A stretch of 59,100 bases of DNA, filler included. It is 4 parts of 4 records of this genome, joined end to end, with 100 filler letters (N's around TTAATTAATTAA, not from the genome) between each part and the next. Parts side by side here need not be neighbours in the genome. Positions count along the whole stretch, not along the records: positions 36,996 to 50,786 come from SRR20825006_696; 3 more parts are not named here. The stretch is one strand, 5' to 3'. Position numbers and translations under genes: made by a program. Shown here one piece after another: positions 15,154 to 58,969 of this stretch. Below the pieces are notes generated by a model. The model ran no database searches. It was not told where the DNA came from and saw only the letters and a program-made list of their open reading frames with translations. Each line of letters opens with the position of its first letter. Position 1 is the first letter of the stretch.

Positions 15154-15253
15154 NNNNNNNNNNNNNNNNNNNNNNNNNNNNNNNNNNNNNNNNNNNNTTA
15201 ATTAATTAANNNNNNNNNNNNNNNNNNNNNNNNNNNNNNNNNNNNNNNNNNNN
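15154..15253. other. Artificial contig spacer
   Basis: N44-TTAATTAATTAA-N44 (stops in all six frames); genes are truncated on both sides. Confidence 0.99.
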
Positions 15254-36895: not shown

Positions 36896-36995
36896 NNNNN
36901 NNNNNNNNNNNNNNNNNNNNNNNNNNNNNNNNNNNNNNNTTAATTAATTAANNNNNNNNNNNNNNNNNNNNNNNNNNNNNNNNNNNNNNNNNNNN
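36896..36995. other. Artificial contig spacer
   Basis: N44-TTAATTAATTAA-N44. Confidence 0.99.
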
Positions 36996-37039: not shown

Positions 37040-39727
37040 CTAGAGATAGGCTTGTAAAGTCCGGGTCAGCAGGCCGAAATCAACCGGTTTGGTGATATAG
37101 GCCTTGAACAGGCCATCGGCGGCATCGATATTTTCCTGCATCGCTGCTGCAGTCAATGCAATCACCGGAATGCCAGCGAATTCGGGGTTTTCCTGCATGA
37201 TGAGGCTCAGTTCAATGCCGGTCATGCCGGGCAGGTTGATATCCAGCAGGATCACATCCGGTATCATCGTTTTCAGCAGCTCCAGCCCGGCCTCGGCACT
37301 TTCGCAGGTATGCAGACAAATATGTTCGTAGCGCGAGAAAAAGACCTCAATCAGGCGGATATTGGCCGGATTGTCCTCAATATAAAGCACATGACGGCGC
37401 AGTTTGCTACTTTCGCTGTCCCCCCGCCGATCCAGTAAGGCGGTATCTTCAGCTGAAGTCATGTTACGTGGCGCAGGCGCTGCCATTGTATCCTGCTGAG
37501 AGGACAGTGGCAGTGCTATCCAGAAACTGCTGCCCTGGCCTTCCGTAGTGGCGAAATCAATGCTGCCACCCATGGCCTCTACCAAGCGTTTGCTGACGCT
37601 GAGGCCGACACCACTACCTTCGATATTGGCGTATTCCTGGCCCAGTCGTTCGAATGCGGTGAATACGTGGGCCTGTCTGTCTGCAGCGATGCCCTGACCG
37701 GTATCAGTCACCGTGAGTTTCAGGGTGCTGTTATGGGTCTGCACACTGGTACTGATCAGCACCTTGCCGCCGGCCTTGTTGTATTTGATGGCATTGGTGA
37801 CCAGATTGATAAACACCTGCTTCAACTTGGTGAAGTCAGCAATCACCACACAGTCGTTATTATTGAGCACATCGACATGAACCTCATACTGTTTGGCCAG
37901 TGTCTGCAGCATAGGCAGGCACTCTTCAAACACGCTGGAGATATGCACATGATCGTGGGAAGTCTGAATATTGCCGGCTTCAATTTTGGACAGCTCCAGC
38001 ACATCGTTAATCAGCGTCAATAAATGTTCACCACTGTAGATGATCTGCCTGACACTTTTGTTTTGCGTTTTGCTCAGCATCTGCTCCTTGTCACTCAGCA
38101 GTAACTGGGCAAAGCCGAGAATGCCGTTAAGTGGCGTGCGCAGTTCATGGCTCATCGCAGACAGAAATTCGGACTTGGCATTATTGGCGCGTTCAGCCTG
38201 TTGCTTGGCTTCAATTAAGGCCTGCTGTTCCGCTTTCTGTTTACTGATGTCACGGGCAATACCGGTAAACAAATATTCACCTTCCCACTGAAAGTCACTA
38301 ATGGTCAGTTCGATGGGGAATGCCTTTCCGCTCTTATGCTGCGCCTCGACCTCGACCGGCTGGCCCAGAATACGGCTTTGTTCGGTGGCCAGAAAACGCG
38401 ACATGCCCAGCTTGTGAAGATCCCGGTAACTGGCCGGCATCAGCATGGTGACGTTTTGGCCGATCACTTCTTCCGGCTGATAACCGAAAAGCGTGATGGA
38501 GGCTTTATTGAAGTTTTCGATAATGCCATGGTGGTTGATGGTGATCACGCTTTCGATAGTGTTATCCAGCAAAGTCTGCAGCCGCAGACTTTCATGGCGG
38601 GCGGCAGCTTCCAGTTCCTCACCTTTTTTGAGTTCCTGCTTCAGTTCTGCGGTGTGCTCGCGGATATAATCATTCAGTCTTCTATCGTGATGCTTTTTCA
38701 ACAACAGACTGATGAGGGACAGCAGTATAAGGCCAACAAAGCCCAGGCTCAGCACTAACGGCCAGTCGGTGCTGCCGGATTCTTGGTAAAGAAAATCATC
38801 AAGGTTACCGACCGAATCATATAACCCCAGATCCTGATAGATTTCGCCGATTTGTTGCCACCGGCTCTGGGTCATATGACCGAATTCAACCGTGGGGTAC
38901 AGGCTGAGTTTGAGTAATTGATCGGCTTCAAACTGCAGGTGGGAACGGCTCTTATTCTGACCGTTGTAGTTGGCGAGAATGAGGTCAATGATCTCCTGCG
39001 GATTCTCGGCGGCGTAGCGCCAGCCCCGATACATCGCTTCGCGGAAAGCTTCAACATGCTCGGGATGCTGCTTCAGGTAGCTCTGCGAGGTAAACAGAAT
39101 ATCGCTGTAGAAGCTGATACCGTAATCCTTGGGCGCAATGGTGCGATAAGGAACCTGTTTTTGCGCCAGCTTGAACGGCTCGTTGGAAATATAGGCGGTG
39201 AGCGCATCCACCCGTCCGGCAATCAGATCATCAATATCGGTGGCTTTGGGGTGTACGAAGTTGATCTGGCTGGTATCAATATTTTCCCTCAGGAAAATCG
39301 CCGCCAGATCGTCGGCATAAGACTGACGCGTGACCGTTTTACCGATGAAATCCTGTGCGGAATAGATGCCGGAATCGGCTTTGACCAGCCAGACATAAGG
39401 ACTGTTTTGAAATGTCGCGCCGAGCGCAACCAGTGGCCGGCCTTTCAGATACTCGACTACAATGCCGGTACCCGACAGGCCGAACTCGACTTGACCGCTT
39501 TCCACCTCATCGTATGGGTGGGTATAGCCTGTTTGAATATCGACATTGAGGCCTGCCTGTCGGAAAAAGCCTTTTTCTTTGGCCGCGTAAAGTCCGGCAA
39601 ATTGAAACTGATGCTGCCAGTGCAGCTGAATGGTGACGTCGTGCTGGCCCTGATCATCTGCCTGAGCGTTGAGGGCAGTGCTTAAAACGAGCAGAGCAAG
39701 GATATTTAATAGGTATCTTAGACTCAT
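37040..39727 (-). CDS. Hybrid sensor histidine kinase: periplasmic NMT1/THI5-like binding domain, TM, PAS, HisKA, HATPase, REC
   Basis: QLHWQHQFQFAGLYAAKEKGFF; PAS FGYQPEEVIGQNV; H-box FLSAMSHELRTPLNG; NLVTNAIKYN, DTGQGI, GSGVGL; REC IEDN...LLDINLPG...KP. Confidence 0.93.
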   Translation of the reverse strand: MSLRYLLNILALLVLSTALNAQADDQGQHDVTIQLHWQHQFQFAGLYAAKEKGFFRQAGLNVDIQTGYTHPYDEVESGQVEFGLSGTGIVVEYLKGRPLVALGATFQNSPYVWLVKADSGIYSAQDFIGKTVTRQSYADDLAAIFLRENIDTSQINFVHPKATDIDDLIAGRVDALTAYISNEPFKLAQKQVPYRTIAPKDYGISFYSDILFTSQSYLKQHPEHVEAFREAMYRGWRYAAENPQEIIDLILANYNGQNKSRSHLQFEADQLLKLSLYPTVEFGHMTQSRWQQIGEIYQDLGLYDSVGNLDDFLYQESGSTDWPLVLSLGFVGLILLSLISLLLKKHHDRRLNDYIREHTAELKQELKKGEELEAAARHESLRLQTLLDNTIESVITINHHGIIENFNKASITLFGYQPEEVIGQNVTMLMPASYRDLHKLGMSRFLATEQSRILGQPVEVEAQHKSGKAFPIELTISDFQWEGEYLFTGIARDISKQKAEQQALIEAKQQAERANNAKSEFLSAMSHELRTPLNGILGFAQLLLSDKEQMLSKTQNKSVRQIIYSGEHLLTLINDVLELSKIEAGNIQTSHDHVHISSVFEECLPMLQTLAKQYEVHVDVLNNNDCVVIADFTKLKQVFINLVTNAIKYNKAGGKVLISTSVQTHNSTLKLTVTDTGQGIAADRQAHVFTAFERLGQEYANIEGSGVGLSVSKRLVEAMGGSIDFATTEGQGSSFWIALPLSSQQDTMAAPAPRNMTSAEDTALLDRRGDSESSKLRRHVLYIEDNPANIRLIEVFFSRYEHICLHTCESAEAGLELLKTMIPDVILLDINLPGMTGIELSLIMQENPEFAGIPVIALTAAAMQENIDAADGLFKAYITKPVDFGLLTRTLQAYL

Positions 39728-39790: not shown

Positions 39791-40516
39791 TTACATTCTG
39801 AAGTCGCGGCCGAGATAAACGCTTAAGACTTTCTTATCCTTAAGAATTTCCTCGGGGGTACCGCGGGCGATCACCTCGCCTTCGTTGAAGATGTAGGCGC
39901 GCTGACAAACATTGAGTGTCTCGCGCACATTGTGATCGGTAATGAGAATGCCGATGCCACGGTCGGCCAGTTCCTTGATGATGCCCTGAATATCGAGCAC
40001 CGAAATCGGATCGACGCCGGCAAACGGTTCATCCAGCAAAATAAACTGCGGATCCATCGCCAGCGCACGGGCGATTTCCACCCGCCGGCGTTCACCACCG
40101 GACAGCGATAGACCTTTGGATTTGCGGATATGATCAATATGGAAATCCTGCAGCAAGCGCTCCAGCAGGTCTTTTCTTGCCGCAGTGGTGAGTTCGTCGC
40201 GCGTTTCCAGAATGGCAAACAGATTATCTTCAACGCTGAGCTTGCGGAAAACAGAAGCTTCCTGCGGCAGATAACCGATGCCAAGACGCGCCCGGTCATG
40301 AATCGGGTAATCAGTCAGATCGTATTGATCGAGGAAAATAAAGCCGTGATCGACCGGCACCAGGCCGACAATCATATAAAAACTGGTGGTTTTACCGGCG
40401 CCATTGGGGCCAAGCAAACCGACAATCTCACCACTTTTTACTTCCAGTGAAATATCTTTAACAACTTGACGATCACCGTAGCGCTTCGCCAGTTGCTGCG
40501 CGGATAAAATACTCAT
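39791..40516 (-). CDS. lptB: LPS export ABC transporter ATPase LptB
   Basis: [58 protein letters not shown]. Confidence 0.98.
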
Positions 40517-40527
40517 CGTTGTCGTAA

Positions 40528-41346
40528 TTATTGCAGGTAGCGGCTGTTGACCCAGCCGATCACCACTTCACCGTTAATCGTACCGCGGACCTGAGCCCAG
40601 TTGGTCTGACGCGTCAGTACAATGACTTCCATGGACTGATCAAAGGTGCCCAGCTTCTGATACTGCGTACCGGGACCACTGCGGACGTTGAGCCGGCTGG
40701 ATGTCACCGCTGTCGGGTAGGATTTGGGCTCGCTAGCCTGATTGTCATTTCCGGTCTCGGAGTCAGTTGCCGGTGTGGTTTCTTCAGTTGGAGCGGGGGC
40801 CGGTTTTGCTTCAGGTTCAGAAGGTTTACGGGTGTTCTGCGGCTGAATAATGATATGCACGCGGCCTTTTTTCTGGGTTTCACCGTCGACGGTGACCGGC
40901 TTGGAGTTGGCACTGACCACGTTGCGGGCAATGTCGTACTCGATGTAGTTGCCGGTGAATTCATCACCGTTCTGCCAGACATAACCATCGCCAATCAGGT
41001 AGATTTTCTGTCGATCGGCGTAGTACTCCATTTTCAGCGCCTTGGCTTTAACTGGGTTTTCGCCGGGGTTGTGCACCTGCTGGTAAGTCGCACGTTTGCC
41101 TTCCGCCACGGCTTTGGTCAGCTGTTTGTTCTCATCGTAGAAAAAAGTGATGATGTCGCCGGTAATGCGTAGGGTGCCCTGAGTCAGAATGGCATCCCCT
41201 TTGTATTGCGTTACCCCATCACGGTCGTCTAACTGGGCGTGATCGGCTTCAATGCTGATCGGTTTTTCCCGGTCACTGGGCAAAGCCAGCGCGATAGCAG
41301 GCATGAGCATGGCAATCGCTAGCAGATTAATTGGCAGGCGCATCAT
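40528..41346 (-). CDS. lptA: LPS transport periplasmic protein LptA with C-terminal linker and SH3b-like domain
   Basis: [15 protein letters not shown]...[11 protein letters not shown]...GRVHIIIQP OstA/LptA domain; P/E/T/A-rich linker; [11 protein letters not shown]...WAQV...GWVNSRYL. Confidence 0.92.
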
Positions 41347-41896
41347 ATTGTCCTTTTACCCTTGAATGCAGGTTGATTGTCTCATCATCCAGCGCTGCGT
41401 GCAGGCCGACAGCGTCGGTTACACCCTGCGGTGAATGTATGGTTACCGGCTCTTCCGTATAAGCCGTGTTGTCTTGCGTATTCAGTGTCAGTCTCTCGGT
41501 GCGCATTTCAAACGCGGGATCATCCTTGTTGCTGATAATAACATTTCCGGTCAGCAGTATTGTTTCCGCCTCACCCTGGGTGTGACCGTGCTGTGAACTG
41601 ACAACCCAGGTGTCCTGTCCGGGTTCCAGAAACTCGGTAACCGGCTGGATAATTTCAGTCGAGTCATCATGCGGATAGTGCGCCATTTCCTCGCCCTTGA
41701 CGATACGCGCCGGTTCACCATTGATATCCATAATCGTCATGGTGAAGTCGGTCATTGCGTAATCGCTAGTACGACGTACTTCACTGGACTGCTGCTCCGA
41801 CTGATTGCTGTCGTTAAAAATCAGCCAGAGGCTGAAGACCGCAATCAGCAACAGCCCGAGACGGGCATAGCGGGGCAGGTTAAAAATGACGTTCAA
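41327..41896 (-). CDS. lptC: LPS export protein LptC
   Basis: N-terminal [32 protein letters not shown]; lies between kdsC and lptA. Confidence 0.92.
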   Translation of the reverse strand: MNVIFNLPRYARLGLLLIAVFSLWLIFNDSNQSEQQSSEVRRTSDYAMTDFTMTIMDINGEPARIVKGEEMAHYPHDDSTEIIQPVTEFLEPGQDTWVVSSQHGHTQGEAETILLTGNVIISNKDDPAFEMRTERLTLNTQDNTAYTEEPVTIHSPQGVTDAVGLHAALDDETINLHSRVKGQYDAPAN

Positions 41897-42401
41897 TTTG
41901 ATCCTGCAGGTTACCCTGTCCTTCCATTATGAGTTCACAAACCTCGCGGGCGGCACCATGACCGCCATTCGATGGTGTAATCCAGTGTGCATGTTTTTTG
42001 ACGACATTGTCAGCATCCTGAACCGCCACAGCGAGACCGACACGGCTCATGATCGACAAATCCACCCAGTCATCGCCCACGAAGGCACATTGTTCCGGTT
42101 CCAGTCCCAGTTCGGCAATCAATTGCTCAAAAACCGGCAGTTTAATGCGTTTGCCCTGAAAGACATGATTAATGCCCAGACTGTTCATCCGGTGTTCTAC
42201 CGTTTTTGTGGTGCGACCACTGATGATCGCAATTTCCACCCCGGTCAGTTGCAGTAACTTCATGCCATGGCCGTCACGGGTATGGAAAGATTTATATTCC
42301 TGACCATCGTCACCGATGATAATGCGGCCGTCGGTCAGAACCCCATCGACATCGAAGATGACCAGTTTGATTTTTTTAGCTTTTTCCAGAATATCCTGCA
42401 T
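41880..42401 (-). CDS. kdsC: KDO 8-phosphate phosphatase
   Basis: FDVDGVLTDG, DGHG, IISGR, VGDDWVD, GGHGAAREVCE. Confidence 0.97.
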   Translation of the reverse strand: MQDILEKAKKIKLVIFDVDGVLTDGRIIIGDDGQEYKSFHTRDGHGMKLLQLTGVEIAIISGRTTKTVEHRMNSLGINHVFQGKRIKLPVFEQLIAELGLEPEQCAFVGDDWVDLSIMSRVGLAVAVQDADNVVKKHAHWITPSNGGHGAAREVCELIMEGQGNLQDQIERHF

Positions 42402-42412
42402 TGATTTTCCTG

Positions 42413-43390
42413 TCAGACGACACCGGCGCGAAGCAGGTCATGCATGTTGATAGCGCCGGCCAGTTTTTGCTGTTCGTTGAGAATGAGTAGGGCATTAATC
42501 TTGTAACGCTGCATTAATTCCAGCGCTTCCGCTGCCAGCATTTCCGGCTTGCCGGTTTTACATCCCCGGGTCATGAAAGCAGACAGCGGTTCAGTATGAA
42601 TGTTCACTTCCTGTGCCAGCACCCGGCGCAGGTCACCATCAGTAAAAATGCCGACAACCTGCTGGTTGGCATCGGTCACCGCGGTCATGCCCAGGCCTTT
42701 GGCTGACATTTCAATCAAGGCTTCACTGATCAAGGCTGATTCGCTGATAGTAGGGATGGCGGAACCGGTATGCATTATATCGCTCACCCGCAATAACAGA
42801 CGCCGGCCCAGCAAACCACCCGGATGCGACATGGCAAAGTCTTCTGCAGTAAAGCCGCGGGCTTCCAGCATGGCTATTGCAACGGCGTCGCCCATTACCA
42901 GGGCTGCGGTAGTGCTGGAGGTCGGCGCCAGGCCGAGCGGACAGGCCTCACGTTCGACACTGACATCGAGATGGGCACTGGCGCATTGCGCCAGCGTCGA
43001 GCCCGGTCTGCCGGTCATGGCGATAAATGGCACATGCAGGCGTTTGATCAGCGGCAGGATAGTCAGAATTTCGGCCGTTTCGCCGGAGTTGGATAAGGCC
43101 AGCACCACGTCTTTATCGGTGATCATGCCCAGATCTCCGTGGCTGGCTTCGCCGGGATGAACAAAAAATGCCGGTGTACCGGTACTGGCCAGCGTGGCAG
43201 CGATCTTACTGCCGATATGGCCGGATTTGCCCATGCCGATCACCACAATGCGGCCGGTGCATGCCAGCATAAACTCACAGGCTTTAATAAAATCGTCGTT
43301 GATGCGATCGCGTAAGGCCGAGACAGCCGCCAGTTCGGTGTCGATGACCGCACTGGCGAGCGCTTTAAGCTTATCGTGATCGATCTGCAT
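42413..43390 (-). CDS. kdsD: Arabinose-5-phosphate isomerase (SIS + 2 CBS)
   Basis: GMGKSGHIG, HPGEASHGDLG, EACPLGLAPTSS, HPGG, GIFTDGDLRR. Confidence 0.97.
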   Translation of the reverse strand: MQIDHDKLKALASAVIDTELAAVSALRDRINDDFIKACEFMLACTGRIVVIGMGKSGHIGSKIAATLASTGTPAFFVHPGEASHGDLGMITDKDVVLALSNSGETAEILTILPLIKRLHVPFIAMTGRPGSTLAQCASAHLDVSVEREACPLGLAPTSSTTAALVMGDAVAIAMLEARGFTAEDFAMSHPGGLLGRRLLLRVSDIMHTGSAIPTISESALISEALIEMSAKGLGMTAVTDANQQVVGIFTDGDLRRVLAQEVNIHTEPLSAFMTRGCKTGKPEMLAAEALELMQRYKINALLILNEQQKLAGAINMHDLLRAGVV

Positions 43391-50786: not shown

Positions 50787-50886
50787 NNNNNNNNNNNNNN
50801 NNNNNNNNNNNNNNNNNNNNNNNNNNNNNNTTAATTAATTAANNNNNNNNNNNNNNNNNNNNNNNNNNNNNNNNNNNNNNNNNNNN
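50787..50886. other. Artificial contig spacer
   Basis: N44-TTAATTAATTAA-N44. Confidence 0.99.
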
Positions 50887-51273: not shown

Positions 51274-51960
51274 TCAGTATTCGTCTGCGTGGTCAATGTT
51301 GAAATTGTAGAGTTTGCGGGCGGAACCGTAGCGCTTGAACTCTTCGGGCTTTGCATCGGCACCCGCTTTTTCAAGAAGCTCTTTGAGGATTTCGATGTGT
51401 TCCGGGCGCATCTCTTTTTCGATGCAATCGGCGCCGAGTGATTTCACCGTCCCACGCACGAAAAGACGTGCTTCATAAAGACTGTCGCCAAGTGCATCCC
51501 CTGCGTTACCCAGCACCACAAGGTTGCCCTTTTGCGCCATGAACGCGGACATGTGACCGATGTTGCCATGCACGACAATGTCGATGCCCTTCATCGAAAT
51601 ACCACAACGCGAAGACGCATTGCCTTTGATGTTCAAGAGACCGCCATGTCCGGTTGCGCCGGCATATTGCGAGGCGTCGCCTTCGATGGTGACGGTGCCA
51701 GACATCATGTTTTCGGCCACACCAGGACCCGCAGACCCTTTGACAGTGACCGTCGCCTCTTTGTTCATGCCAGCACAGTAGTAGCCGGTAGACCCTTGGA
51801 TCGTCACGTCAAGCGGGCCATCGAGACCGCAGGCCATCGCATGACTGCCGCGCGGATTGGTGATGATGTATTCCGCATTGGCCTGTGCTTTCGCAGCGGC
51901 CTGTAACGTGCTGTTGATGTCGCGCAGTTCTGTCTGCGTCATATCGAGCGTGTTGGTCAT
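51274..51960 (-). CDS. mgsB: N-methylglutamate synthase subunit B (GXGXG/GltB-C-terminal-like)
   Basis: GSTGYYCAGMN, GVAENMMSG, SRCGISMKG, GHMSAFMAQ, YGSARKLYNF. Confidence 0.92.
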   Translation of the reverse strand: MTNTLDMTQTELRDINSTLQAAAKAQANAEYIITNPRGSHAMACGLDGPLDVTIQGSTGYYCAGMNKEATVTVKGSAGPGVAENMMSGTVTIEGDASQYAGATGHGGLLNIKGNASSRCGISMKGIDIVVHGNIGHMSAFMAQKGNLVVLGNAGDALGDSLYEARLFVRGTVKSLGADCIEKEMRPEHIEILKELLEKAGADAKPEEFKRYGSARKLYNFNIDHADEY

Positions 51961-51963
51961 GGA

Positions 51964-52851
51964 TTAGCGCTCCCAGAAATATACAGTTGCGGGTTCCGGC
52001 TCCCAAACGCGGGCGGCATCAATACCCGGCAGGTCGGCGAACGCACGGTATTCAGAGGCGAAAGCGACGTAGTCGTCTGTTTCGGCCATCACGGCGGGTT
52101 TGCAGGCGATTGGGTCGCGCACAACGCCAAAGCCGTTTTTCGTCCCGGTGACAAAGGTGAAGAACCCATCGAGATCCTTCAGTGTGCCTTCCAAAGCCTC
52201 GCCAAGCGTCGCGCCGTCCGCAATGCGTGAGGAGATATAGGCCGCACCCACTTCGGTGTCGTTTTCCGAGCGTGTGAACACACCTTTTTTCGCCAAAACC
52301 CGGCGCATTTGGTTGTGGTTCGACAGCGAGCCGTTGTGCACGAGGCACTGGTCATCTGCGGTCGAAAACGGATGCGCGCCCATGGTTGTGACGGCGGATT
52401 CTGTCGCCATGCGGGTGTGACCGATACCGTGGCTGCCACCCATCTCGCGCAGGTTAAACCGAGCCGCCACGTCTTTGGGCAGGCCGATTTCTTTATAAAT
52501 TTCCATGGACTCGCCCGACCCCATGATGCGCAGTCCTTTGTTTTCAAGGAACGCAATCGCTGCTTTTTCCGATCCGGCGGGGACAGTGAGCACCGCATGC
52601 GTGCTGATCGACTTGATCGTCACAGGCCCGTCGATTACCGCGCAGAGATCGGCGTCTAGATCGGCAAATGCCGTCTCCGGCGTATCCGACTGAACGGTGA
52701 TTTTGATGCCGCCTGTCTCATCACCATAGATCGCGATCCCTGCACTATCGGGGCCGCGGTCGGTCATGGTGATCAGCATATCGGTTAACATGTCGCCCAG
52801 CTTGGGGCGCAGTTCGTCCTTTTTAAGGAACAGGCCTACAATGCCACACAT
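51964..52851 (-). CDS. mgsA: N-methylglutamate synthase subunit A (class II glutamine amidotransferase)
   Basis: N-terminal MCGIVG (Ntn Cys), RGPDSAG, GHTRMATES, VHNGSLSN, ENDTE; GGAGG RBS. Confidence 0.92.
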   Translation of the reverse strand: MCGIVGLFLKKDELRPKLGDMLTDMLITMTDRGPDSAGIAIYGDETGGIKITVQSDTPETAFADLDADLCAVIDGPVTIKSISTHAVLTVPAGSEKAAIAFLENKGLRIMGSGESMEIYKEIGLPKDVAARFNLREMGGSHGIGHTRMATESAVTTMGAHPFSTADDQCLVHNGSLSNHNQMRRVLAKKGVFTRSENDTEVGAAYISSRIADGATLGEALEGTLKDLDGFFTFVTGTKNGFGVVRDPIACKPAVMAETDDYVAFASEYRAFADLPGIDAARVWEPEPATVYFWER

Positions 52852-52913
52852 ATATCCCTCCATCAGAGTCTTCGGCCCAATCGCCGTTATGATCTGATTA
52901 GAGGGAAATCTTA

Positions 52914-52966
52914 TTTCTCATCAAGAAAGTTTTTCTCTACAGGAGCAAGTTTTTCTGTTTGGGAAA
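52914..52966. promoter_or_regulatory. Three TTTC-N7-GAAA operator-like boxes upstream of mgsA
   Basis: TTTCTCATCAAGAAA (52914), TTTCTCTACAGGAGC (52932), TTTCTGTTTGGGAAA (52952). Confidence 0.6.
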
Positions 52967-53041
52967 TAATCGCCCGGAAATGTCGCGAAATAGGGCGTGG
53001 GCAGCAGCCATCGCACAAAAAACAGACTTCCTTAGAACGCA

Positions 53042-53677
53042 TTATTTTTGTTGAGGGTAGGTGATGACCGAAAGATAGCGCGCGGGAAGCTCAATCAGCG
53101 CCTCTGGCCCATGCGGCGAATCTGCATCAAACAATAGCGAGTCACCCGGTTCCAAAATGTACCGCTTGTCCCCATGCCGATAGTCGATCACGCCCTCAAG
53201 AATATAGAGCAACTCAATGCCCTCATGTTGAAACGCCGGAAAACGGTCGCTCTCGTTGTCCAAGGTGATGAGATAGGGTTCAACCACAACACCGGAGTTG
53301 TTTGACCCAATATGCCCCAACAGGTTGTATTGGTGCCCCGCGCGTGTCCCCGCGCGTTCGATTTCAACACCCTCGCCCGCTTTCACATGCATACAACCGC
53401 GCTCTTCTTCAAAGCCGGAAAACAGTTGAACCAGTGGCACGCGCAGCGCATTGGCGAGGGTTTGAATCGTGTTCAGAGAGGGTGAAATCACACCGTTTTC
53501 GATTTTGGACAGCATCCCAACCGACAGACCCGCCTGCCCCGCAAGATCCGCGCCCGTCATGCGCTGACGCTTGCGCAACTCGCGCACCTGACGGCCAATC
53601 GCCACTTCAAGGTTCTTTTCGCGCGTCTCACGAACCGCATGAGGATTTTGTTGGAGGGTGGTCTGTGATTTTGTCAT
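53042..53677 (-). CDS. XRE-family HTH transcriptional regulator with C-terminal cupin
   Basis: IGRQVRELRK...LSVGMLSKIENGVISPSL; cupin HEGIELLYILEG...LEPGDSLLFDADSPH; ATG 53677 with AGGA RBS. Confidence 0.93.
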   Translation of the reverse strand: MTKSQTTLQQNPHAVRETREKNLEVAIGRQVRELRKRQRMTGADLAGQAGLSVGMLSKIENGVISPSLNTIQTLANALRVPLVQLFSGFEEERGCMHVKAGEGVEIERAGTRAGHQYNLLGHIGSNNSGVVVEPYLITLDNESDRFPAFQHEGIELLYILEGVIDYRHGDKRYILEPGDSLLFDADSPHGPEALIELPARYLSVITYPQQK

Positions 53678-53719
53678 TCGGCGTCCTGTCTCAAAACTGG
53701 TCTTCAATCTATGCTCTGT

Positions 53720-55006
53720 TTACTGCGGCGTGGCTTTAGCACTGCGATCTGGGGCAAGTCGTTGATCCCACAATTGCCCAAGCTCTTCCATATGCCGTTT
53801 TAAACGTGGTCCATTGTGTTCCAGCCAGTCCAAAACGGACACGAAGTCTTCAATCCGGGCCTTGCCATTACGGATTGTAACCACCGGCCAATCTCCGACC
53901 AAGGCATTATCAATCCCAAAAATCTCATCGCCCCACCATCGGGCTGGACCAAAGACATGTGACATCCGGCGCCCCCGCTTCATCGCCGCCAAAACCGACA
54001 CGGAATTGGTCGAATCCGCGAGCTCAACCGCATTGTGCCACAGATCCAAGATCGACGCATATTCCCAACTCACCGCACCCCATGCGCCAGGGAAGCGACT
54101 GCAATAGGTGTCAAAGAATGCTTTGGGCTGACGAAAGAAAAACGCGTTATCCGCCAGTTTTGGGTCATCAAAATCCGGGAACTGAAAGACAAAACGCTCC
54201 ATGAACGCAGCCGACGTGCGCGCAATCAACCTGTTATAGTTGTCGCCGGTACAGGACAGGATATGGCCCTCAAAGCCAAGTTTGTAGGCGGCTTCGGTCA
54301 GAGCCTTGACCATGGGCGGCGGCGAAGAACACCAACAGAGAATATCGGGGGCTTCGGCCATCATGGCTTTGACAATGCCAAGTGCGTCTTTGGTGTCTGC
54401 GCTGTATTGAATGTCTTTGACGATTTCTCGCTTTGCCGCCTCAAATCCGGCGCGATAGACCGCGAGTGACGGCAAGCCCATCAAATCGGTTTGGCTACAT
54501 ACTGCGACGCGGGTGGCCTGAGGTTGGGTGCGCACCAACCACTCAATACCCGCGACATTGAACAGGGGATGCACCTCAGCCGGTGCGATCAAATAAGGCC
54601 GGTCCGGCGACAGATCACTGGGCAACAGGGTCGCCACAAGCACTTTACGCGACATCAGGTAATCAATCGCCTGCGCCACATCATTTCCGCCCAGCGTGAC
54701 GATCAGCGGGATCTGATCTTTTTCGACCATATCGCGGGCCGCGGCCAAAGTTTGGTCCGGACCAATTGCACTATCCTGCACACGCATTTCGATCTTGTGC
54801 CTGCGACCGCCCACCATCAGGCCGCCATGGGTGTTGATCCAGTCCACCCAGATCTTGCAGCCCTCATATCCGGGCAGGCCCCATGCCTGTTCATCCCCGG
54901 ACATGGGAATCAAAAAGCCAATCCGAATGGGCGCGCGGGTTTGTCCGCCCAGTTTCGGCAAAGACCCTGTCACAAGCAGGCGCTGAGAGAGGGAAGAAAT
55001 GCTCAT
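53720..55006 (-). CDS. Branched-chain-type (PBP1) substrate-binding protein, apparently without signal peptide
   Basis: IRIGFLIPMSG, INTHGGLMVGG, APDILCW; no hydrophobic N-terminal leader; no permease or ATPase gene adjacent. Confidence 0.8.
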   Translation of the reverse strand: MSISSLSQRLLVTGSLPKLGGQTRAPIRIGFLIPMSGDEQAWGLPGYEGCKIWVDWINTHGGLMVGGRRHKIEMRVQDSAIGPDQTLAAARDMVEKDQIPLIVTLGGNDVAQAIDYLMSRKVLVATLLPSDLSPDRPYLIAPAEVHPLFNVAGIEWLVRTQPQATRVAVCSQTDLMGLPSLAVYRAGFEAAKREIVKDIQYSADTKDALGIVKAMMAEAPDILCWCSSPPPMVKALTEAAYKLGFEGHILSCTGDNYNRLIARTSAAFMERFVFQFPDFDDPKLADNAFFFRQPKAFFDTYCSRFPGAWGAVSWEYASILDLWHNAVELADSTNSVSVLAAMKRGRRMSHVFGPARWWGDEIFGIDNALVGDWPVVTIRNGKARIEDFVSVLDWLEHNGPRLKRHMEELGQLWDQRLAPDRSAKATPQ

Positions 55007-55184
55007 ATTTTCATCATTGGCCTAATTTTGTGATCATCAGGGCCAAATGGCCCCTGCAAATATATTCCCACAAAGAAAATTCATTGACCACGAAAAAAGT
55101 TGGTTCTCATCTGGTTCATGCCGATTGAACCAATTTATGAATTCGGTTCAGTCCAATGAATTCTAATGTCCAAGGGAGACACTC

Positions 55185-56528
55185 ATGACCAAACGTGTCG
55201 CAATTATCGGAGCGGGTCCCTCCGGCCTCGCACAGCTCCGCGCCTTTCAATCTGCCGCGCATAAAGGCGCAGAGATTCCCGACGTTGTCTGTTTTGAAAA
55301 ACAATCCGATTGGGGTGGGTTGTGGAACTACACATGGCGCACCGGCGTCGATGAAAATGGCGAACCCGTGCATTGTTCAATGTATCGCTATCTGTGGACC
55401 AACGGTCCGAAAGAAGGTTTGGAATTTGCCGACTATTCCTTTGAGGAACATTTCGGCAAACAAATCGCCTCCTATCCGCCGCGCGCCGTCATGGTTGATT
55501 ATATCGAAGGTCGGGTGAAAAAGGCCGGAGTGCGTGATTGGATTCGGTTCTCTACCGTAATCCGCTGGGTCGACTACGATGAGGACACAGGCAAATTTAC
55601 CATCACCGCCCATGACATGGTCGAGGACCGGATGTACAAAGAGGTGTTTGATCATGTGATCGTTGCCTCAGGTCACTTCTCTTCGCCAAACGTGCCCGAA
55701 TACCCTGGGTTCGAGACATTTAATGGCCGCATCGTCCACGCTCATGATTTCCGCGACGCGCGCGAATTTGCGGGCAAAGATGTGCTTTTGGTGGGCGCGT
55801 CTTATTCGGCGGAAGACATCGGATCACAATGTTGGAAGTACGGCGCCAAGTCGATCACAACTTCCTATCGGTCCGCACCCATGGGGTTTGACTGGCCGGA
55901 CAATTGGGAAGAAAAACCTGCGCTGGTGAAAGTCGACGGCAAAACCGCCTTTTTCAAAGATGGCTCCACCAAGGATGTCGATGCGATCATTCTTTGCACT
56001 GGCTATCGTCACTACTTCCCATTCCTGCCTGACGATCTGCGCCTGAAAACGGCCAACCGTTTGGCCACGGCCGACCTCTATAAAGGCGTCGCCTATGTCC
56101 ACAATCCAAAGATGTTCTATCTGGGGATGCAGGATCAGTGGTTCACCTTTAACATGTTCGATGCGCAGGCTTGGTATGTGCGGGACATCATCATGGGCCG
56201 CATCGAGGTGCCCTCTGACAAAGAGGTGCTTTTGGCCGATGTTGCAGAACGCGTTGAGCGCGAAGAACGTCAGGATGATGTGAAATACGCGATCGTCTAT
56301 CAGGGCGATTACGTCAAAGAACTGATCGCCGACACCGACTATCCATCCTTCGATGTGGATGGGGCTTGCGAGGCTTTCTTTGAATGGAAGCACCATAAGG
56401 TCGAGGACATTATGGGCTTTCGCAATCACAGCTATAAATCGGTGATCACCGGAACCATGGCCCCCGCGCACCATACCCCGTGGAAAGATGCGCTGGACGA
56501 TTCCATGGAAGCCTATCTTCAAAACTGA
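55185..56528 (+). CDS. tmm: Trimethylamine monooxygenase (bacterial FMO)
   Basis: GAGPSG FAD motif, [37 protein letters not shown] motif, GASYSAED; methylamine gene context. Confidence 0.95.
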
Positions 56529-56596
56529 TCTAACATGTGACGCAATGGACGGGCCTTTCGCGGGGCCCGTCTCTCTCCTTTTTACAAGGACAAAAA

Positions 56597-58969
56597 ATGC
56601 AAACGCACATTCCCGCAACCCTGTTGCGCCCCGGACCGCCCTCCGCCTCGCGCCCACGCCGCGCGGCGGCCTATGGGCTTCAATCCAACGAAGAGCGCGT
56701 GACCGTTCCCGGTTCTGGCGCGGTCATGGTCGAACTCGCCCAAGGCGATCAGATCACGATTGAGAATATCGAAGGTGGCCAGCGTTGCGAACTTCTGAGC
56801 GCGCATCCCAATGGGCGCTTGGATTGTGGCCTTTTGGGCGCAGCCGCAGACACGTCCGCCTCAGGCCTGCGCGCGATGCTGCTATCACCTCTGTCGGGCT
56901 TTGATCGGCTAAAAAGGGGTCTAATCCAGCGTAATATTGATCTGACGGGTGCAAGTGCCGTCGGTCTTTTTGGCGCTGAAAGCCCCGCGAAAGACAGTGC
57001 CACCTTTACGGCGCAGGGTTCAGGCTGGGCCATCATTGCCGCCCCCGGCGATGTGATGGATTTCGAAACGCAAGACACCACAACACCGCTACGTGTGACC
57101 CTAACCCGTGCCAAATCGCGCCAACCCGGTCAATTCGCCCTGCCCGATCCTTTGGCCGATCCCGTTCAAGACCTGCGGGTCAAATCCGCCACGGCTCAGG
57201 CCTATTTTGTACGCAAAGGCGAGTTCATCCAGATCCTTGATGTCGATGGTCGCCAATGTACTGATTTCCAATGTTTCGACGCGCGCAAAGCGGATCGTGG
57301 CGACTACCTTCCCCTTGATGTCACCACCACGCGCACCATCCTCAACCACGCCTACCCGATGCCCGGACTGCATGGAAAATATTTCGATCAGGACATGACA
57401 CCCCTCATCGAAGTGGTGCAGGACACCTGCGGTCGGCACGACGCTTTCGCCATGGCCTGTTCATCCAAATACTACGATGACATCGGCTATCCCGGTCACG
57501 CCAATTGTTCCGACAATTTCAATGGCGCACTTTCGGCCTATGACATTCCTGGCCGCAAGGGATGGATGGCGGCGAATTTTTTCTTCAACACCCATGTCGA
57601 TGAACATGGCGTTCTGTTGGCTGACGAACCGTGGTCGCGTCCGGGCGATTACGTGTTGTTGCGCGCGCTCACCGATCTGATCTGTGTGTCTTCCGCCTGC
57701 CCCGATGACACCTCCCCGGCCAATGGCTGGAATTTGACCGACATTCATGTGCGCACCTATGCCGCCCAGGAGCGGTTCAGCCGCTCCGTGGCTTGGCGCG
57801 CCACTCCAGACGAGGACCCTGTCATGACCCGTGAAAGCGCCTTTCATCATAACTTTGCCACGCTGACGAGTGATTTCGTCGAGTATCGTGGCTTTTGGCT
57901 GCCAAATTCGTTCCGTCAAACCGACACGATCGAGGGCTATTGGGCCTGCCGTGACGATGTTGTGGTCATGGACCTCTCTGCCCTGCGCAAATTTGAAGTC
58001 ACCGGCCCGGATGCCGAAGCACTGATGAACTGGGTTCTGACCCGCAACGTCGAAAAGCTCGGAGTCGGTCAGGTGGTCTATTCGGCCATGTGTTATGAGC
58101 ATGGTGGCATGATTGACGATGGCACGCTTTTCCGCCTTGGTCCGACGAATTTCCGTTGGATTGGTGGCTCGGACGAAGGTGGCGTTTGGATGCGGGAACA
58201 GGCCGAAAAGCTCGACCTAAATGTGATGATCCGCACCTCCACCGACCAGATGCACAACCTCGCTGTCCAAGGTCCAAAATCCCGCGATCTGATGAAAGAA
58301 ATCATCTGGACCGCCCCGCATCAAACGCCGATCTCCGATCTTGATTGGTTCCGCTTTACCGTGGGCCGGATTGGCAATCATGAGGGCGTGCCTGTCGTGG
58401 TGTCTCGGACGGGCTACACGGGTGAGCTGGGCTATGAAATCTTTTGCCACCCCAAAGACGGCGACGCGGTGTTCAAGGCCGTTTGGGAAGCAGGTCAGGC
58501 CTACGGGATACGTCCGATGGGACTTGCCGGGCTTGACCTTGTGCGGATTGAGGCGGGGCTTGTGTTTGCAGGCTACGATTTCTCCGATCAGACTGATCCG
58601 TTTGAAGCCGGGATTGGCTTTACCGTTCCGCTCAAATCAAAGACTGTGGATTTCGTTGGTCGAGACGCGCTTTTGCGGCGCAAAGAGCATCCCGCCCGCA
58701 AATTTGTCGGGCTTGAGATTGAGGGTCAAAACCACGTTGCCCATGGCGATTGCATCCGCATTGGGCGCGCACAAGTGGGAGAGGTCAGTTCCGCGATGCG
58801 ATCCCCACGCACCGGTCAAGTCATCGCCTTGGCACGGGTCGATGTTGCGCATTCTGAGCCGGGTACAGAGGTCGAAGTTGGCCAATTGGACGGTCATTTG
58901 AAACGCTACAGCGCCAAGGTCACGGCCTTCCCGCATTACGATCCTAAAAAGGAACGTCCGCGCAGTTAA
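56597..58969 (+). CDS. tdm: Trimethylamine N-oxide demethylase (DUF1989 domains + GcvT-like aminomethyltransferase)
   Basis: GRQCTDF, DTCGRHDAFAMAC, NCSDNF, VSSACPDD; GcvT part DLSALRKFEV.GPDA, SRTGYTGELGYE, RIEAG; AAGGA RBS before ATG 56597. Confidence 0.92.
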   Translation: MQTHIPATLLRPGPPSASRPRRAAAYGLQSNEERVTVPGSGAVMVELAQGDQITIENIEGGQRCELLSAHPNGRLDCGLLGAAADTSASGLRAMLLSPLSGFDRLKRGLIQRNIDLTGASAVGLFGAESPAKDSATFTAQGSGWAIIAAPGDVMDFETQDTTTPLRVTLTRAKSRQPGQFALPDPLADPVQDLRVKSATAQAYFVRKGEFIQILDVDGRQCTDFQCFDARKADRGDYLPLDVTTTRTILNHAYPMPGLHGKYFDQDMTPLIEVVQDTCGRHDAFAMACSSKYYDDIGYPGHANCSDNFNGALSAYDIPGRKGWMAANFFFNTHVDEHGVLLADEPWSRPGDYVLLRALTDLICVSSACPDDTSPANGWNLTDIHVRTYAAQERFSRSVAWRATPDEDPVMTRESAFHHNFATLTSDFVEYRGFWLPNSFRQTDTIEGYWACRDDVVVMDLSALRKFEVTGPDAEALMNWVLTRNVEKLGVGQVVYSAMCYEHGGMIDDGTLFRLGPTNFRWIGGSDEGGVWMREQAEKLDLNVMIRTSTDQMHNLAVQGPKSRDLMKEIIWTAPHQTPISDLDWFRFTVGRIGNHEGVPVVVSRTGYTGELGYEIFCHPKDGDAVFKAVWEAGQAYGIRPMGLAGLDLVRIEAGLVFAGYDFSDQTDPFEAGIGFTVPLKSKTVDFVGRDALLRRKEHPARKFVGLEIEGQNHVAHGDCIRIGRAQVGEVSSAMRSPRTGQVIALARVDVAHSEPGTEVEVGQLDGHLKRYSAKVTAFPHYDPKKERPRS

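Follow-up and report, generated by a model that had tools for sequence, protein, structure and literature searches.

An SH3b domain fused to LptA in Methylophagaceae and Nitrosococcaceae as a possible peptidoglycan tether of the lipopolysaccharide bridge

In the Escherichia coli model, the jellyroll of LptA links LptC in the inner membrane to LptD in the outer membrane, LptC pairing with its N-terminal edge and the N-terminal domain of LptD with the opposite, C-terminal edge, and lipopolysaccharide (LPS) travels along its groove. The placement of this Lpt bridge relative to the peptidoglycan mesh and the coordination of LPS insertion with wall growth are poorly understood, and we know of no physical link between the bridge and the wall in that model system. 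The lptA-SH3 gene, at 40528..41346 (-) of the window, the 59,100-nucleotide stretch of DNA analyzed here, codes for an LptA with an SH3b tail and raises the question of what such a domain does on a subunit of the bridge.

The gene consists of a 272-aa open reading frame (ORF) followed by a TAA stop (40528-40530), and reading of the DNA showed the frame to be unbroken across all 272 codons. Residues 1 to 21 (41284..41346 (-)) form a putative signal peptide with a cleavage site judged by eye: the N terminus is hydrophobic and by eye ends in ALA, the match to the LptA equivalog TIGR03002 begins at residue 21, and residues 14 to 21 have low pLDDT. The LptA beta-jellyroll follows at residues 22 to 170 (40837..41283 (-)), as delimited by TIGR03002, AF2 and Foldseek. 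TIGR03002 (NCBIfam) matched residues 21 to 170 over model positions 1 to 142 of 142, with 136.2 bits against a cut-off of 71.7, and LptD_N (Pfam) matched residues 32 to 141 (E 5.2e-25; 88.3 bits, cut-off 20.4). The jellyroll closes with GRVHIIIQP at residues 161 to 169 (40840-40866), after which come a disordered linker rich in Pro, Thr, Ala, Glu and Lys (residues 171 to 210; 40717..40836 (-)) and an SH3b (SH3_3) domain with a conserved YPT lead-in (residues 211 to 272; 40531..40716 (-)). The Pfam SH3_3 family (PF08239) matched residues 217 to 272 over model positions 1 to 54 of 54 (E 1.3e-12; 48.1 bits, cut-off 27), LNVRSGPGT occupies residues 219 to 227, and the domain forms the C-terminal end of the protein, which extends beyond the jellyroll by about 100 residues. 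Every feature tested places the protein in the LptA family, and the tail belongs to SH3_3. The Pfam and NCBIfam matches, with the motifs located where it had placed them, thus bear out the anatomy described in an earlier note on this DNA, namely, a full LptA jellyroll, a linker of about 40 residues and an SH3 domain in one ORF.

The same note had placed the gene in a kdsD-kdsC-lptC-lptA-lptB operon, and all five genes are indeed present in this order on the same strand, with their domains recognized by Pfam. The kdsD position is held by a kdsD-type SIS+CBS arabinose-5-phosphate isomerase gene (42413..43390 (-); PF01380 and PF00571) and the kdsC position by a kdsC-type HAD phosphatase gene (41880..42401 (-); PF08282). 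They are followed by lptC (41327..41896 (-); PF06835, 2.2e-40), whose end overlaps the start of lptA by 20 nt, and, past lptA-SH3, by an ABC ATPase gene in the lptB position (39791..40516 (-); PF00005 and PF12399), which begins 11 nt past the lptA stop. Genes for a YrbG-like Na/Ca exchanger and MlaA lie farther upstream. Directly downstream of lptB, at 37040-39727 (-), is a gene for an 895-aa hybrid histidine kinase with periplasmic NMT1/THI5-like, PAS, HisKA, HATPase and receiver domains, an arrangement common to the genome G043. In E. coli, rpoN-hpf-ptsN is found at the position downstream of lptB.

Four contigs make up the window, with N runs around TTAATTAATTAA linking them at 15154-15253, 36896-36995 and about 50787-50886, the third placed by analogy and observed only as the motif at 50831-50842. 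The GC contents of the four pieces are approximately 34%, 42%, 52% and 54%. Piece 2 (15254-36895) is 100% identical to G001, the genome of another genus; piece 3 (36996 to ~50786), which holds the lpt genes, shares 87 to 90% identity with a Methylophaga MAG, and piece 4 is likewise Methylophaga-like. Given these differences in GC and kin, more than one organism has contributed to the source assembly, and a search for relatives that takes the window as its center is misleading. None of the 41 genomes around G001 that were searched for the fused LptA gave a match, and G001 is not kin of this gene. The lptA-SH3 gene lies about 3.5 kb within piece 3, and the contig joins thus leave it untouched. 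Public contigs of two runs from different studies (X3 and X4) each span 40300-41600 with 4 substitutions and no gaps, and a public contig of run X8 spans 40489-41393, i.e., the whole gene, with 2 substitutions and no gaps; among the four public runs compared, no indels or joints were found at lptA-SH3. The fusion artefact that the earlier note had asked to be checked was thus not found, as independent contigs carry the gene without indels and relatives keep the fusion with no stop after the jellyroll. Piece 4 contains, at 51274-58969, genes typical of methylated-amine use, including those for an FMO-like monooxygenase (55185-56528), a DUF1989+GCV_T protein (56537-58969), GXGXG and GATase subunits, and a periplasmic binding protein.

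We modeled the full-length protein with AF2 from a 25-sequence alignment. The jellyroll strands (residues 30 to 166) were predicted with a pLDDT of ~90 and the SH3 domain (residues 212 to 267) confidently; pLDDT was below 50 at linker residues 175 to 207. Foldseek matched the jellyroll to P. aeruginosa LptH (4uu4; E 1.1e-13, TM 0.90 on the target) and to E. coli LptA (2r19/2r1a; E ~1e-10, TM 0.80 to 0.89). Like E. coli LptA (YhbN) and LptH, the protein has a full jellyroll, preceded here by a putative signal peptide, with its gene located between lptC and lptB; it differs in having, in addition, the linker and SH3b tail of ~100 residues.

The SH3 domain modeled alone reached a pLDDT of 94.9. 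The closest sequences of solved structure were 2kq8, a “cell wall hydrolase” of B. thuringiensis (8e-7), and 2krs, and its Foldseek neighbors were B. subtilis YrvJ (9a7d), 2krs, 9ovi, 2kt8 and 4krt, only one of them at E <= 0.001. When the domain was compared with 48,161 chains by VIA-align, the phage phiSM101 endolysin Psm (4krt) matched with Z 9.9 and an rmsd of 1.9 over 65 residues. The seven chains at Z >= 8 (4krt, 6bim, 9ovi, 7pj3, 3pvq, 8b2s and 3h41) are all bacterial-type SH3 domains, and six of them belong to peptidoglycan hydrolases (4krt, 6bim, 7pj3 of LytB, 3pvq, 8b2s and 3h41); eukaryotic SH3 domains scored Z <= 7.5. Among the best 150 of 4933 sequence matches were eight SH3-only proteins, four with a glucosaminidase and one with an amidase_3 domain, whose rank is inflated by their own 6 to 12 repeats. 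The nearest sequence and structure relatives of the LptA SH3 are wall-binding modules of peptidoglycan hydrolases. These modules (Psm 4krt, LytB 7pj3/4q2w, NlpC/P60 3h41, 3pvq, 6bim; 2kq8) are of the same Pfam family and are its best structural matches (Z 8.3 to 9.9), and in Psm two SH3_3 copies are described as making up the C-terminal cell-wall-binding domain (PMC7999503). In contrast with them, the LptA module sits on a lipid-transport subunit in a Gram-negative periplasm, and its ligand is putative.

Another periplasmic SH3_3 protein of a gammaproteobacterium is the YgiM/ElsS-type SH3_and_anchor protein (TIGR04211). lptA-SH3 is not of this type: it scored 27.5 bits against TIGR04211, under the cut-off of 65, and its tail has neither a coiled coil nor a membrane anchor. 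The only other SH3_3 gene of G042, a Methylophaga chromosome, is of the YgiM/ElsS type (L071:1327-2070); its product has an N-terminal hydrophobic segment, an SH3 domain, a coiled coil of ~90 residues and a C-terminal membrane helix.

How widespread is the fusion? The best 120 of 260 homologues all combine PF03968 with PF08239. They are called LptA wherever they are named, except for one hypothetical protein, and their hosts are Methylophaga species or MAGs assigned to Methylophagaceae or “Piscirickettsiaceae.” A scan of one genome per species yielded 53 loci, including those of the isolates M. thiooxydans DMS010, M. muralis and M. pinxianii and of closed chromosomes. Within the order that holds G042 and Nitrosococcus, 85 of 90 genomes match, and in 83 of these 85 the match extends to at least query residue 268; of the other two, G101 is truncated at a contig end and G044 has an LptA that stops after the jellyroll. 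With a profile of distant members, the best 120 of 878 matches again all had both PF03968 and PF08239, and the most distant members, at 35 to 42% identity, were from Nitrosococcus oceani, N. watsonii and Ca. Nitrosoglobus terrae.

Beyond the order, we searched samples of the class and of the phylum. In the class sample of 401 genomes, 327 of the 400 scored genomes matched the LptA query; among the 150 matches listed, besides which there were 192 weaker ones, the SH3 domain was reached in only four, all from this order. In the phylum sample of 401 genomes, the C-terminal 140 residues at E <= 1e-8 matched G042 alone, with a query so stringent that weakly similar fusions could have escaped. The fusion was thus not found outside the order in the samples of 401 class and 401 phylum genomes, although lineages beyond these samples may have it. 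Among the best 150 of 4933 matches in a search of 1.84 billion representatives, the two-domain proteins were P0121, P0125, P0129, P0130 and the fragment P0127, and the protein atlas contains three clusters with the LptA-SH3 architecture (54, 58 and 55 members), from Pseudomonadota. Three unrelated LptA-like proteins, P0131 (326 aa), P0141 (240 aa) and P0143 (311 aa), have two tandem LptD_N domains per chain, a different way of elaborating LptA.

Databases thus already hold hundreds of two-domain proteins, called plain LptA. The earlier note had not recognized the architecture from the literature, and we likewise found no description of an LptA-SH3 fusion in a search that left subscription journals largely outside. 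Each of the domains is known; what is new is the combination of LptA with SH3.

The fused gene appears to be the only lptA of its hosts. In each of the genomes G042, G043, G127 and G131 (4 of 4), LptD_N was found in two genes and no more: lptD and the fused lptA. Being the sole LptA in these four related genomes, which serve as a proxy for the genome of the window, the SH3-bearing protein would therefore have to do the job of LptA there.

We compared the regions of the protein among 59 distinct full-length sequences. Mean pairwise identity was 0.65 for the jellyroll, 0.53 for the SH3 domain and 0.22 for the linker, which ranges from 28 to 56 residues (median, 42) and is rich in Thr, Pro, Ala, Lys, Ser and Glu. 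By the Nei-Gojobori method, dN/dS was ~0.05 for the jellyroll (90 pairs), ~0.22 for the SH3 domain (189 pairs) and ~0.95 for the linker (398 pairs), values that come from pair sets unlike between regions and, for the linker, from a poor alignment. The SH3 domain is under purifying selection. Its pairwise identities co-vary with those of the jellyroll (r 0.92, with none of 999 permutations as high), as expected if both were inherited together. Within the domain, W250, G264 and W265 are invariant.

The number of SH3 copies varies, from none in G044 and one in most genomes to two (P0130/L062 and the fragment P0127) and three (L063). The L062 and L063 proteins are Nitrosoglobus-type LptAs, with two tandem SH3 domains encoded at L062:2922-4220 (G125) and three at L063:3002-4405 (G131). 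In the SH3 domains of L063, the usual LN.R.GPG motif has decayed and an L.LY.SAN-like sequence stands in its place, which suggests an altered or relaxed binding site.

At the other extreme, G044, a 1.1-Mb genome, has an SH3-less lptA (L066:3058-3844) coding for an LptA of 178 aa in a 193-codon open frame. In a tree built from jellyrolls only, this LptA nests within the Methylophagaceae, in the 95/91 set beside L041/L042, and its SH3-less state therefore is a secondary loss. Where relatives have the linker and SH3, the lptA-lptB spacer of G044 comprises 250 nt with 25% GC, and tblastn with the tails of five relatives revealed no SH3 remnant in it at E <= 10. We considered that the loss of SH3 might be linked to loss of the wall, and rejected this idea: G044 keeps 3 PBP-type transpeptidase genes, like four relatives. 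A cell can thus do without the SH3 domain while retaining its wall.

In the same jellyroll-only tree, the Nitrosococcus-type and Methylophaga-type clades were not joined, the former being placed beside unfused outgroups with weak support (91/68). An AU test did not reject a single clade of both types (delta lnL 0.80, p 0.449). A single origin of the fusion is thus compatible with the data but not proven.

What, then, might the tail do? We tentatively favor, at somewhat less than an even chance, a role in tethering LptA to peptidoglycan at the end that faces the outer membrane, a reading in which both the ligand and the effect on the bridge are drawn from kinship and anatomy. The lptA-SH3 product would be the LptA of the cell and, by the E. 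coli model, would bridge LptC to LptD. Its leash would start directly past the last jellyroll strand, at the end that faces LptD and the outer membrane, and its 28 to 56 disordered residues would give the SH3 domain several nanometers of reach. The domain would bind the peptidoglycan layer just below the outer membrane; LptA, whether free or in the bridge, would be kept at the sacculus, and the bridge would be fixed or stabilized where it passes through the wall. Relatives have 0 to 3 SH3 copies, and this number may set how strongly the protein binds. A tether is the best reading because the SH3 domain belongs to a wall-binding type, experiences selection and, like avidity modules, differs in copy number between relatives. 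This suggests, but does not prove, that the bridge is tied to the wall. The earlier note had proposed that the domain could fix or position the bridge in the sacculus or bring in a wall hydrolase, an idea that fits the kinship of the SH3, its selection and its copy-number variation and that as a mechanism remains conjectural.

The anchoring of envelope-spanning machines to the wall has precedents, including the predicted SH3b lipoprotein TagV (PMC7614798). TssL/TagL and TagV of the T6SS share with the proposed tether the concept that a small module fastens a trans-envelope machine to the wall; the module of TagV is likewise SH3b-like and was compared with that of Psm, and its binding to peptidoglycan is put forward there as a proposal (PMC7614798). 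These T6SS accessory proteins are separate proteins, whereas in lptA-SH3 the module forms part of a core bridge subunit.

Several points argue against a tether. SH3b denotes a fold, not a ligand, and the isolated SH3 model gave just one Foldseek match at E <= 0.001. Nitrosoglobus-type copies have a degenerate LN.R.GPG motif, and the domain was lost in G044, which has a wall. Well-studied contacts of SH3b domains with peptidoglycan mostly concern Gram-positive walls, and the Psm and TagV cases of peptidoglycan binding are themselves termed unconfirmed in the same source (PMC7614798).

The main rival to the tether, which we regard as unlikely, is that the SH3b domain is a protein-binding module that docks onto LptD/LptE, another outer-membrane lipoprotein, or a peptidoglycan synthase or hydrolase; LPS insertion would then be coupled to that partner rather than to the wall polymer. 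SH3 folds commonly bind proteins, a leash of 28 to 56 residues could reach neighboring Lpt parts, and the domain co-evolves tightly with the jellyroll. The SH3_and_anchor protein ElsS of A. baumannii also speaks for this possibility: it has been linked to cell wall elongation by the Rod system and, by analogy with an H. pylori SH3 protein, is a candidate scaffold (PMC7481262). More generally, periplasmic SH3 proteins of Gram-negative bacteria have been proposed in that source to be scaffolds for wall-synthesis proteins (PMC7481262). However, the nearest relatives of the LptA SH3 are wall-binding modules and not protein adaptors, and a copy number of 0 to 3 is more typical of the binding of a many-site polymer than of a 1:1 protein contact.

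Less likely still, LptA or its cargo would be the target of the tail, which would bind LPS sugars or another envelope glycan or limit the self-association, stability or turnover of LptA. The position of the tail would suit such a role. E. coli LptA forms head-to-tail oligomers, and the tail exits at the C-terminal edge through which these contacts are made. However, the AF2 monomer model showed no sign of a fixed docking of the SH3 domain onto the jellyroll (pTM 0.56, with linker pLDDT below 50), and no glycan-binding relatives stood out in the VIA-align comparison. As for the linker being a PxxP ligand of its own SH3 domain, this candidate was rejected: PxxP was not enriched in the linkers, 31 of 59 having at least one such motif versus 34.9 +/- 3.4 after shuffling.

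We deem it very improbable that the appendage is an evolutionary passenger without a function of its own. G044 did lose its SH3, with an AT-rich 250-nt spacer left behind, and the linker evolves neutrally, as a passenger would allow. Against this, the SH3 domain has a dN/dS of ~0.22, has been duplicated in tandem in some lineages, and was kept in 83 of the 85 matching genomes, across families whose jellyrolls are 35 to 40% identical. Finally, we can practically dismiss an artefact of assembly or gene calling, in which lptA and a distinct SH3 gene would have been run together through an overlooked stop codon or frameshift. The window does concatenate contigs of a mixed assembly, but lptA-SH3 is well away from either end of its contig (36996 to ~50786), independent contigs contain the gene free of indels, and the ORF recurs in isolate genomes and in complete chromosomes.

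Returning to the tether, its extension to the whole order is more tentative again: the LPS bridge may be physically tied to peptidoglycan via its own LptA, with export sites that would be fixed points of the sacculus and with avidity provided by one to three SH3 domains. The organisms concerned are marine and soil Gammaproteobacteria, in which the automatic annotation “LptA” conceals a conserved extra domain. The only LptA of the cell bearing a leashed module of wall type, conserved across Methylophagaceae and Nitrosococcaceae, offers a handle on the question of how the bridge relates to the wall, and the naturally occurring proteins with 0, 2 and 3 copies lend themselves to comparison. Should the SH3 domain bind a protein instead, it would point to a new partner of the bridge. 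If the tether is real, these bacteria would offer a natural test case of how a rigid lipid bridge spanning the envelope can cross a wall that is growing and persist alongside it.
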